DNA of 64,000 nt. It comes from Escherichia coli. GTDB taxonomy: Bacteria; Pseudomonadota; Gammaproteobacteria; Enterobacterales; Enterobacteriaceae. Made by a program: the position numbers. Positions 28,201 to 31,200 of this stretch are shown here, one piece after another. Numbering within the stretch: the first letter of the stretch is position 1; every line of letters begins with the position of its first letter. Where the stretch lies: the NCBI RefSeq assembly GCF_036507355.1, contig NZ_AP027877.1, one strand, 5' to 3'.

Positions 28201-31200
28201 CCAACGCTGAAACGAGACAAGTATAATCGTACAAATTAGCGCCACAATTGTCACGATAACCCCGACGCCTGGATCTGTCATCGGTGTTGGAGATATCAGA
28301 TGTTGAATACCCGTCAAAAACAGGAATAGTGCTGAACCGGAGATAAACATACTTTGCGCCAGCGCCGCGAGGGACTCAGCTTTACCGTGACCAAACGAGT
28401 GATTATCGTCGGCAGGTTGCAGGGAATATCGCACCACCAGTAAATTCGTCAACGACGCGCCGATATCCACCAGCGAATCCACCAGCGCGGCGAGAATACT
28501 CACCGACCCGGTATACCACCATGCAAAAATTTTAATCAGCAATAGCAGCGAAGCCATCGCCGTCGCAGCAATCGCCGCCCGACTGACCAGCCGTCCATAA
28601 GATTGATTCATAAATACTCCCGCTATCAACTGACGCTAGTATAACGGAAGCAAATCATCTGCAATGCATTAAGCAGCAGGCAAATTGAGGATAAAAAAAA
28701 CCCCCACATCATGTGGGGGAAGACAGGGATGGTGTCACAAAAAAGCACCTAACCTGATGATATAAATGGATTTATGTCAACCGCTGTCCACATAGCGTCC
28801 ACATCGTTCAGCGTCCGTTTAATCGGACGCTTTTAAATTTTTATTTTTCCCAGCAGAAAAATTAGCTTTCCCGCTGTTTTGCAACTCAACAAGAGGAGAT
28901 AACCGTCGGTAAACAGCCAAAAGTATCTTTAACTGAACCAGTTCATCTGCCCCCGATAGTTGAACCAAGTTTTTACGTTGTTCTTCACTAAGTGCCATCA
29001 CAGATTCAAGTGATTTAACTGCGTCAGAAACAAGTTCAATCTCTTTAATTTGATTCTGTATACGCAGCTTCTCTGATTTCAACTTTGCCCATTCTCTTTG
29101 TCGATATGTACGCATCACCTGATCGTAAACTTTGTTGGCAGCCAGAATACTTCCACCAACAGCAGTAACTAACTCAGCAATCTGCCAAGAGATATCAATA
29201 AGAGCAGACAATTCAATAAAGCCAGGAGAGGCATACTGAATTTTTTTCACTACAGGACGTAAATCTGGTGGAGTCGCACTGTAAGCCCCTCTAAAAAAGT
29301 TCACCACACTGTGCCCACCCTCCCAAGGCATTGTTGAATATCCTCTTGATCCTCCTTTTAGGCGCTGAATTTACAATCCAAGTGCAACAAAAAAAGAAGT
29401 ACTCATCAACTAGAATATAATTTTGTTTCCACACAAAAACCACTTCCAAATGATGAGTACTTCCTACCGACATCTTACAATAAACGAGCGAGAAAAGATA
29501 ATGATTTTACTCGCACAGGGCAAAAAACAAGCAGAAATTGCCAAAGCACTGGGACGTAGCTCCAGCACCATTTCTCGCGAGCTGAAACGACACGCTCTAG
29601 AAAGCTACAGTGCAACGAACGCACAAAACAGCTATTTGAAGCATCGTCAAAATAGCAAAGCACAGCGCAAATTAGAGCAGCCTGAATATTTCAATTTGGT
29701 GCAAGAAAAGTTTCTGACAGAAAACTGGTCGCCCGAACAAATCAGCGCACGATTAAAATTGGAAAAATCTGAATTATCCATTAGTTATTCAACCATTTAT
29801 CGTGGTATTTATTCAGGGTTGTTTGATATAGGCGAACGCAAAGCCAGTCGCAAACTGCGCCACAAAGGCAAAACACGGCATACAAAAAATCATCATGAAA
29901 AACGTGGCAAAATTCAGATATCCAACCATTTGAACGACCGTCCCATTTCGGCGCAAAATCGCAGTCGCTTTGGACATTGGGAAGCCGATACCGTACTGGG
30001 TAAAGCGGGTGGAGCTTGTTTGCTGACGCTGACGGAACGCAAAAGTCGTTTTGAGTTGGTGAAGAAAATTCCTGCCAAAAAAGCCGAAGCAGTCCAAAAA
30101 GCCATGATTGAATTGCTGGATTCACATATATTGCGGTCAATTACGCCAGACCGTGGTAAAGAATTTGCCCAACATCGTTTGGTAACAGAAGCACTGGGTG
30201 TAGAATTTTACTTCCCCGAGCCGCATCAACCGTGGACACGGGGAACGAATGAAAATACAAATGGGTTACTTCGTGAATACTTTCCGAAGCACCAAGACAT
30301 CAATCAGTGGAGCGAAGTTGATATTCAACAGGTGATCAATAAACTGAATTTACGACCACGTAAATGTTTAGGTTGGAAAACACCTTATGAAGTTTACTTC
30401 AAAAAATCGTTGCACTTGGTTTGACAATTCAAGGCCATAAAAAAAACCATATAGCTGCAAATACTCTTTCGTTAAGACCGCGAAATCAGCTAACTCCCAA
30501 CGATTATCAAGCTCAATTATAACTTTTTCCATTTTCCACCAACCTGTCCAACTTTAAAGATTGACTTTTAAGTATATGATAAACATAGTTTATTAAACGT
30601 GATCCACTACTTTTAATGAAGAATATTCCCCAAAACAGAAAGCCCCTCGACTGAGGGGCTTTCTGTTTGTAATTACATCCACATAATTTGCTGCCCTGAC
30701 GGCAACGGGTGCGGTCTTACGGCGTGGACTTCTCCCGGCTTGTCCAGGGTAATGACATTTTCTTTGTTCATGGTTTTCTCACTTCTGAATCAGGGTTAAC
30801 CGGCCAGCCAGGCTGACCGGATGAAAATCACAGGCCGATATTGCGGCGGTGTTGCTCCAGCCGGTCGACGCCGTTCACCTTCTCAATCATGTTGATGGTG
30901 TCAATTTCGACCAGCTCCTTACCGTCCATCGTCAGCCGGAAATAACCCATTTTTCACCGGCACGAGCCTTCGGTTTGCAAGGATCACGCAATTCAATAAT
31001 TGGTAATTTATTTGCCTTCACCATTTCACTGACGGCTGTCTTTGGCTTCCCTAATAAATCAGCAAATTTATCCACATGAACCGCATCAAGCGGATACTGA
31101 ATCACATAATTTTCAGCGTCCATATATGGTACCCTCATAGGATCCAGCCCTTTCTAAACCACTCAAAACCGTTTAGACGCTGGTTTATTCTCAAATCAAT

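Follow-up and report, generated by a model that had tools for sequence, protein, structure and literature searches.

An ISApl1-split relative of the PD-T4-10B C-terminal module at the right end of a P2-like prophage remnant in Escherichia coli

What is the 170-aa open reading frame (ORF) that stands alone at one end of a decayed P2-like prophage in Escherichia coli, and does its presence there point to selection? The ORF (positions 28819-29331) lies in a 64,000-nucleotide stretch of contig NZ_AP027877.1 (RefSeq assembly GCF_036507355.1), hereafter the window, on a 4-kb island between the chromosomal genes fieF and cpxP. Our analysis indicates, with a probability that we put at roughly 80%, that the ORF is the 3′ four-fifths of a 213-aa P2-like prophage accessory gene cut by the insertion sequence (IS) ISApl1, most likely a dead fragment, and that the intact gene encodes a short homologue of the C-terminal module of PD-T4-10B, likely a defence effector.

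The ORF is the larger part of a gene split by ISApl1

An earlier note on this DNA had described the ORF as intact, AT-rich and preceded by a plausible ribosome-binding site. Its composition and its upstream sequence are as described: the GC content is 40.9%, compared with 50.5% for the window and 52% for fieF, and a Shine-Dalgarno-like (SD-like) sequence, AAGGAGGATCAAGAGGATATTCAACA, stands directly 5′ of the ATG. Intactness is the part of the description that fell, the ORF belonging to a 213-aa gene that ISApl1 has split. As the uninterrupted reference, we used a similar remnant without the IS in E. coli PSS-08-1 (locus L001). The window aligned with it in two colinear blocks (28001-29363 with L001 2362-3724, and 30432-30741 with L001 3721-4030) with 99.9% identical flanks, and held 1,072 extra bases, namely the 1,070-bp ISApl1 and a 2-bp GC duplication. 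The uninterrupted coding sequence (CDS) of the reference comprises 642 nt and encodes 213 aa (WP_000416606.1), and removing the IS from the window in silico restored exactly this protein.

The IS sits between codons 33 and 34, and the 170-aa ORF begins at an internal methionine, Met44. The frame that opens at the family-conserved start is therefore interrupted, with the native upstream region cut off. Codons 1-33 run on into 21 IS-derived codons, forming a 54-aa fusion ORF (30368-30532) whose peptide was absent from the public protein collection searched. Lacking the native 5′ region, the first strand (b1) and helix (a1) of the predicted fold and the residues W12, Y24 and Y28, the truncated ORF has most likely lost the function of its parent, as judged from the sequence.

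The element was identified as ISApl1, of the IS30 family, by its DDE transposase, its inverted repeats (29366-29388 and 30409-30431), its length of ~1.07 kb and the 2-bp duplication. ISApl1 is the element that mobilises mcr-1. The copy described here is the only one within the window and is 99.5% identical at the nucleotide level to an annotated copy in E. coli E423 (locus L002). The disrupted allele was not found in any of 5,426 complete E. coli genomes, none of which covers at least 80% of the island. In E423, a second and independent ISApl1 insertion (L002 6046-7135) lies ~700 bp from the insertion site of the window, where it abuts the edge of the phage attachment (att) repeat between fieF and the cargo gene, equivalent to ~28690 of the window; that genome contained 36 matching places for the query.

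The parent protein is related to the C-terminal module of PD-T4-10B

Searches of Pfam, PHROG and NCBIfam gave the 170-aa ORF no family, the last two returning only noise (E>0.02). The earlier remark that it carries no recognisable motif nevertheless no longer stands, as the PADLOC models of PD-T4-10_B did match it (E=9.4e-27, profile positions 187-346 of 353). The domain is thus already catalogued in PADLOC under that name, and the family, which the earlier note could not assign, is not wholly undescribed. The full 213-aa protein matched PDLC04024 with E=1.3e-34 (profile positions 139-346 of 353), as well as PDLC04025 (E=7e-23) and PDLC04026 (E=3e-19). These PADLOC matches were the only family assignment of the parent protein: it had no match in PHROG, NCBIfam or, by sequence profile, the PDB, and neither it nor any of its 45 aligned homologues matched Pfam. 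AFDB50 returned only uncharacterised members of the family, and a tblastn search of 50,697 phage records did not find the gene.

The system to which the models PDLC04023-04026 belong was reported by Vassallo et al. (2022, Nat Microbiol). PD-T4-10 emerged from a functional selection in strain ECOR65 and consists of two overlapping ORFs, A and B (PMC9519451). For the ECOR65 system, PD-T4-10B was reported to be toxic and needed for protection against T4, while A neutralises it; the pair protects against T-even phages by abortive infection. Its authors class it as a toxin-antitoxin system of the abortive-infection type, give its mechanism as unknown and recognise DUF6575 as its sole domain (PMC9519451).

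Relatives of the 213-aa protein are numerous, with 118 homologues retrieved by a word search and 791 clusters at 50% identity by a hidden Markov model (HMM) search of 1.84 billion representative proteins. They share the conserved motifs PWxGGxSVVNFF and IQYASPGFIEL and occur in two architectures: a short one of ~210-240 aa, consisting of the module alone, and a long one of ~330-370 aa, which has it as the C-terminal part. Proteins of the long architecture correspond to full-length PD-T4-10_B (P0211, E=4e-83, with DUF6575 at its residues 31-99). An ORF of 140-148 aa lay directly 5′ of the long form in all three loci with an upstream gene called, overlapping it in two, and the one such ORF that was scored, which served as a positive control, matched PD-T4-10_A with E=9e-31. 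The 213-aa protein begins at profile position 139, and the DUF6575 region is missing from it.

A six-frame PADLOC scan of positions 28640-32790 detected no PD-T4-10_A, which ruled out a hidden antitoxin gene in the island. In the intact E. coli loci, a mere 140 bp separate the upstream prophage gene ogr from the cargo gene, and the ogr terminator hairpin lies inside this interval. Small ORFs beside the Pseudomonas and Vibrio homologues were considered as partners and rejected, the 51-aa ORF in Vibrio lying inside an attC-like repeat. PADLOC system calls need both A and B, so a solo gene would not be called. The toxin module of PD-T4-10 is widespread as a solo gene, and annotation of defence at the level of whole systems would overlook it for want of an A partner; a description of the solo short architecture was not found in the literature searched.

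Predicted structure

The AlphaFold2 (AF2) model of the 213-aa protein (mean predicted local confidence, pLDDT, 78) shows a small alpha/beta N-terminal domain, in which strand b1 spans residues 2-8 and helix a1 residues 14-36, followed by a helical C-terminal half with one helix of ~50 residues (105-154). A coiled-coil C-terminal half, predicted for the ORF beforehand, agrees with this model. The long helix may mediate oligomerisation. No transmembrane segment was predicted, and a membrane protein was rejected on the basis of the maximum Kyte-Doolittle mean over 19 residues (1.35).

Distribution and genomic contexts

The intact gene was present in 159 of the 5,426 complete E. coli genomes, with at least 99% identity in every case. 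All these copies occupy one position: the prophage is P2-like and inserted at the cpxP terminator, and the gene lies between its ogr and its right attachment site (attR). The frame was open at this ogr-attR position in the six full P2-like prophages checked (L009, L026-L028, L030 and L033), and the gene takes the same place in the second remnant, that of PSS-08-1, and in E423.

Outside E. coli, the contexts are more varied. The Enterobacter homologue lies beside gapA, on an island where it is accompanied by an Ogr/Delta gene and by neighbours that vary. In two Enterobacter loci (L003 and L017, ~2000-6000), the Ogr/Delta-family gene and a 235-aa homologue flank a strain-variable segment, which contains an Exo_endo_phos gene and a 139-aa ORF in one strain and two unknowns of 340 and 282 aa in the other; this segment looks like a small variable cargo hotspot. 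The Pectobacterium and Siccibacter homologues are found at prophage ends, after the tail genes. In Pseudomonas sp. GM80, the homologue is located in a prophage immunity region beside an S24 repressor (cI) and a DUF4917 protein. There (L010 5001-6668), the 210-aa homologue is followed after 28 bp by the gene for the 335-aa DUF4917 protein, and the two may form a two-gene accessory module. The Vibrio homologue (209 aa) is a single-gene cassette bounded by attC-like repeats. In that locus (L006 1-9654), a repeat of ~130 nt occurs in at least 11 copies between small genes of the same strand; this array, whose end is close to an Ntox44-domain gene, points to a chromosomal integron. Taken together, these settings show the module being carried and maintained by mobile elements as a single gene, as would suit accessory cargo with a defence role.

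Proposed role of the intact gene

The intact gene normally occupies the ogr-attR position with an upstream region of its own, and would use the terminator inside the att core. Its product is predicted to be soluble, with the small alpha/beta domain and the coiled-coil-like helical half described above. It is probably a prophage-borne, phage-triggered effector that arrests growth and so would guard the lysogen population against superinfecting phages. Such an effector would act without PD-T4-10A and would be controlled from elsewhere, perhaps through low expression or through activation by a phage product. In the window, the IS parts codons 1-33 and the region upstream of them from the remaining codons, and a product initiated at Met44 would be without b1, a1 and three invariant aromatic residues. 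Defence function and toxicity of the intact gene are plausible given its homology to PD-T4-10B. The earlier proposal of an abortive-infection, exclusion or other defence cargo therefore suits the parent gene, a homologue of a toxin that travels as a single gene on mobile elements, and does not suit the window copy, which the IS has inactivated.

Several points weigh against the account of a defence gene reduced to a dead fragment. The role of the short form is drawn from homology, the toxicity of PD-T4-10B may reside in either of its halves, and the label toxin-like may therefore not transfer to the solo module. A toxin without its antitoxin also needs some other control, and none was identified. 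As for the window copy, the strong SD-like sequence and the many public calls of the 170-aa product (see below) mean that translation may start internally at Met44, and transcription running out of the IS might, in principle, allow the 170-aa fragment to be expressed.

One may go further and propose that short solo PD-T4-10B-like proteins form an undescribed autonomous single-gene family of phage exclusion or abortive infection, in which the module itself carries the toxic or effector activity of PD-T4-10, restrained by a factor different from a cognate antitoxin. We regard this extension as tentative and rather doubtful. Such a family would have spread via the right ends of P2-like prophages, other prophages and Vibrio integron cassettes, and the window would, on this view too, contain an inactivated allele. 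An active solo form would show where the effector domain of PD-T4-10 lies, and one would then have to ask what restrains a toxin that has no partner.

It is also conceivable, but in our judgement unlikely, that the intact 213-aa gene has no part in defence and serves, for example, in regulation, in lysogenic conversion, or as an inhibitor or decoy acting against PD-T4-10-type systems, sharing with PD-T4-10B a structural or oligomerisation module and nothing else. The C-terminal module is indeed all that the two proteins have in common, DUF6575 and antitoxin A being missing; no enzymatic fold was recognised for the 213-aa protein, and the gene persists free of an antitoxin in many genomes. Yet the sole experimentally characterised relative is a defence toxin, and the contexts of the homologues (prophage ends, an immunity region by a DUF4917 protein and an integron cassette) are of the kind that defence cargo occupies. 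Beside the autonomous family proposed above, a prophage-encoded decoy that modulates PD-T4-10-type systems would be the rarer alternative.

Start of the gene

The exact 170-aa product is called on at least 1000 public contigs, intact IS-free P2-like prophages among them, and a strong SD-like sequence, AAGGAGGA...GAGGA, lies 5′ of the Met44 ATG. On these grounds, the 170-aa ORF might be a real functional gene that starts at Met44, with ISApl1 in its leader or promoter, where it may drive or alter expression. The evidence from the region upstream makes this improbable. Among the loci inspected for the start call (L026-L033, 5001-5513 and upstream), the upstream 129 nt were open and in frame from an ATG (MEKVII...) in seven out of eight, and L032 had a frameshift in the N-terminal region; RefSeq annotates the gene as 213 aa. 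We aligned 45 homologues from Enterobacter, Siccibacter, Pectobacterium, Pseudomonas, Vibrio, Agarivorans and metagenomes. Residues 1-43 were conserved as protein even in the Pseudomonas, Vibrio and metagenomic sequences, with W12, Y24 and Y28 invariant and L8, D9, L14, T21, Q26 and Y32 nearly so, whereas Met44 was not conserved. These residues also belong to the folded N-terminal domain of the AF2 model. Furthermore, no consensus promoter pointing at the ORF was found at the IS end, which is weak negative evidence only.

Since residues 1-43 are conserved and folded and Met44 is not conserved, the 213-aa form is the gene. The 170-aa call is best read as a start-site artefact favoured by the strong internal SD-like sequence, in which case a systematic miscall on at least 1000 public contigs sets the start 43 codons downstream of the true one. 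A further reading, that the frame is open merely by chance in the AT-rich DNA of the remnant and no gene at all, has nothing in its favour except the missing Pfam, PHROG and NCBIfam matches and is refuted by the homologues, their strongly conserved motifs and the confident AF2 model.

The prophage remnant and its decay

The island lies in the E. coli chromosome (yiiQ, tpiA, cdh, sbp, pfkA and fieF, then cpxP, cpxR and cpxA) and has a GC content of 43%. It contains an integrase, a C repressor, cox and ogr in P2 order, with direct att repeats at its ends (Table 1), and the earlier identification of a P2-like remnant was correct. Equally accurate were the placement of the ORF at the att-proximal end, which proved to be the right end after ogr, with the ORF ending 83 bp from the 47-bp repeat, and the observation that it is the sole non-core, non-IS coding sequence retained. 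The cox, ogr and tail fragments are truncated; structural genes are absent from the window and present at the same site in other strains.

Table 1. Features of the island and its borders (positions in the window).
Feature	Position	Strand	Remarks
170-aa ORF, ATG start	28819-29331	minus	residues 44-213 of the 213-aa PD-T4-10B-like cargo protein, plus stop codon
3′ fragment of split gene, codons 34-213	28819-29363	minus	colinear with L001 3180-3724, 99.9%; left copy of GC duplication at 29362-29363
5′ fragment of split gene, codons 1-33, MEKVIIELDNRWELADFAVLTKEYLQLYGFFYG	30434-30532	minus	PADLOC PD-T4-10_B profile positions 139-173
ISApl1 (IS30 family), 1070 bp	29364-30433	plus	terminal inverted repeats; 2-bp GC target-site duplication
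IS transposase CDS	~29450-30424	plus	NCBIfam IS30 transposase NF033563, E=3.4e-92
fieF	27709-28629	minus	
att repeat, 47 bp, fieF side (attR of remnant)	28690-28736		exact direct repeat with 32720-32766
19-nt repeat TGTCCACATAGCGTCCACA	28785-28803		partner 32619-32637, 95% identity; just inside each att repeat
Perfect 16-bp hairpin between ogr fragment and cargo gene	30633-30668	minus	conserved upstream of intact gene in L026-L033
ogr 3′ remnant, last 23 codons	30673-30741	minus	matches L002 8034-8102 inside annotated ogrK
P2 tail gene region fragment, 210 nt (tail assembly / tail tube junction)	30735-30944	minus	99% identical to L002 12822-13031
Truncated Cox-like ORF, 68 aa	30932-31138	minus	PHROG 272 Cox-like, E=1.5e-25, profile positions 1-60 of 90
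P2 C-type helix-turn-helix (HTH) repressor, 97 aa	31260-31553	plus	PHROG 147, E=3.9e-39; HTH protein in L001 annotation
Tyrosine integrase	31593-32603	plus	PHROG 1 integrase, E=8e-82; 'phage integrase' in L001 annotation
att repeat, 47 bp, cpxP side (attL)	32720-32766		exact direct repeat with 28690-28736
cpxP	32790-33293	minus	

The 47-bp att core holds a GC-rich hairpin and a T-run that resemble a terminator on the minus strand (28719-28701, with the other copy at 32731-32749). The prophage thus integrates in the cpxP terminator and duplicates it, and the copy on the fieF side would end the cargo-gene transcript. The 19-nt repeats just inside the att repeats have the form TGTCCACATAG(C/T)GTCCACA, with two GTCCACA units within, and may be arm-type binding sites of the integrase. 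The integrase start annotated in PSS-08-1 corresponds to ~31623 in the window. The hairpin downstream of the ogr fragment is probably the ogr terminator, and the cargo gene's own promoter should therefore lie between 30533 and 30632, a putative promoter region that the IS separates from the 170-aa ORF.

The two remnants have different deletion joints at the same att site (window 30673-31138 and L001 3962-4165). The PSS-08-1 remnant kept ogr codons 6-72, fused just upstream of cox; what the window kept is just 23 codons of ogr, 60 of cox and the piece of the tail region. No further deletion would turn either remnant into the other, indicating that the prophage decayed at least twice, independently. 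The 5′-truncated ogr of PSS-08-1 is labelled 'ogrK' by RefSeq. Both remnants keep the cargo gene within ~100 bp of attR, where any internal deletion would keep it. The retention of this gene had been taken to suggest selection; because its position explains why it was kept and the IS later knocked it out, retention is no evidence of selection, and a gene under selection would hardly be expected to remain with an IS inside it. The window copy itself consequently carries little weight: it is an IS-inactivated fragment whose presence can be explained without selection.

Elsewhere in the window, Rfam hits at the gathering score (35523-35600, 44445-44607, 55297-55355, 11205-11262 and 6541-6593) represent three naRNA4 (REP-type) elements, a SECIS_3 element, a ClpQY promoter element and an L31 leader, and positions 5520-5561 and 26447-26488 hit ES036. 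None of these elements is out of the ordinary in E. coli.

Comparison with known systems

As a case of insertional inactivation by ISApl1, the locus conforms to what is known of the element in every respect compared: a 1,070-bp element with 99.5% identity to an annotated copy, a 2-bp duplication and an AT-rich target, with nothing unusual about it.

Among P2 cargo genes, the 213-aa gene resembles old, tin and fun(Z): it is AT-rich and non-essential, belongs to a P2-like prophage and is likely to act against other phages. It shares no sequence similarity with them and differs in location. Two P2 hotspots have been described, the interval between the replication and portal genes and the Z/fun site (PMC9519451), whereas this gene occupies the extreme right end, between ogr and attR. 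The ogr-attR junction is thus a cargo position of P2-like prophages apart from both.

The closest comparison is with PD-T4-10. From end to end, the 213-aa protein is homologous to the last ~205 residues of PD-T4-10B, and like this toxin it is carried on mobile elements in Enterobacteria. It differs in lacking the ~135-aa N-terminal DUF6575 region of the toxin and in missing the overlapping upstream antitoxin PD-T4-10A, both in the island and in all short-form contexts examined; the short form is a single gene, and its copy in the window is disrupted by an IS. On the sequence evidence, the window feature would be an ordinary insertionally inactivated gene, and the solo family to which its parent belongs a putative variant of a known defence component.

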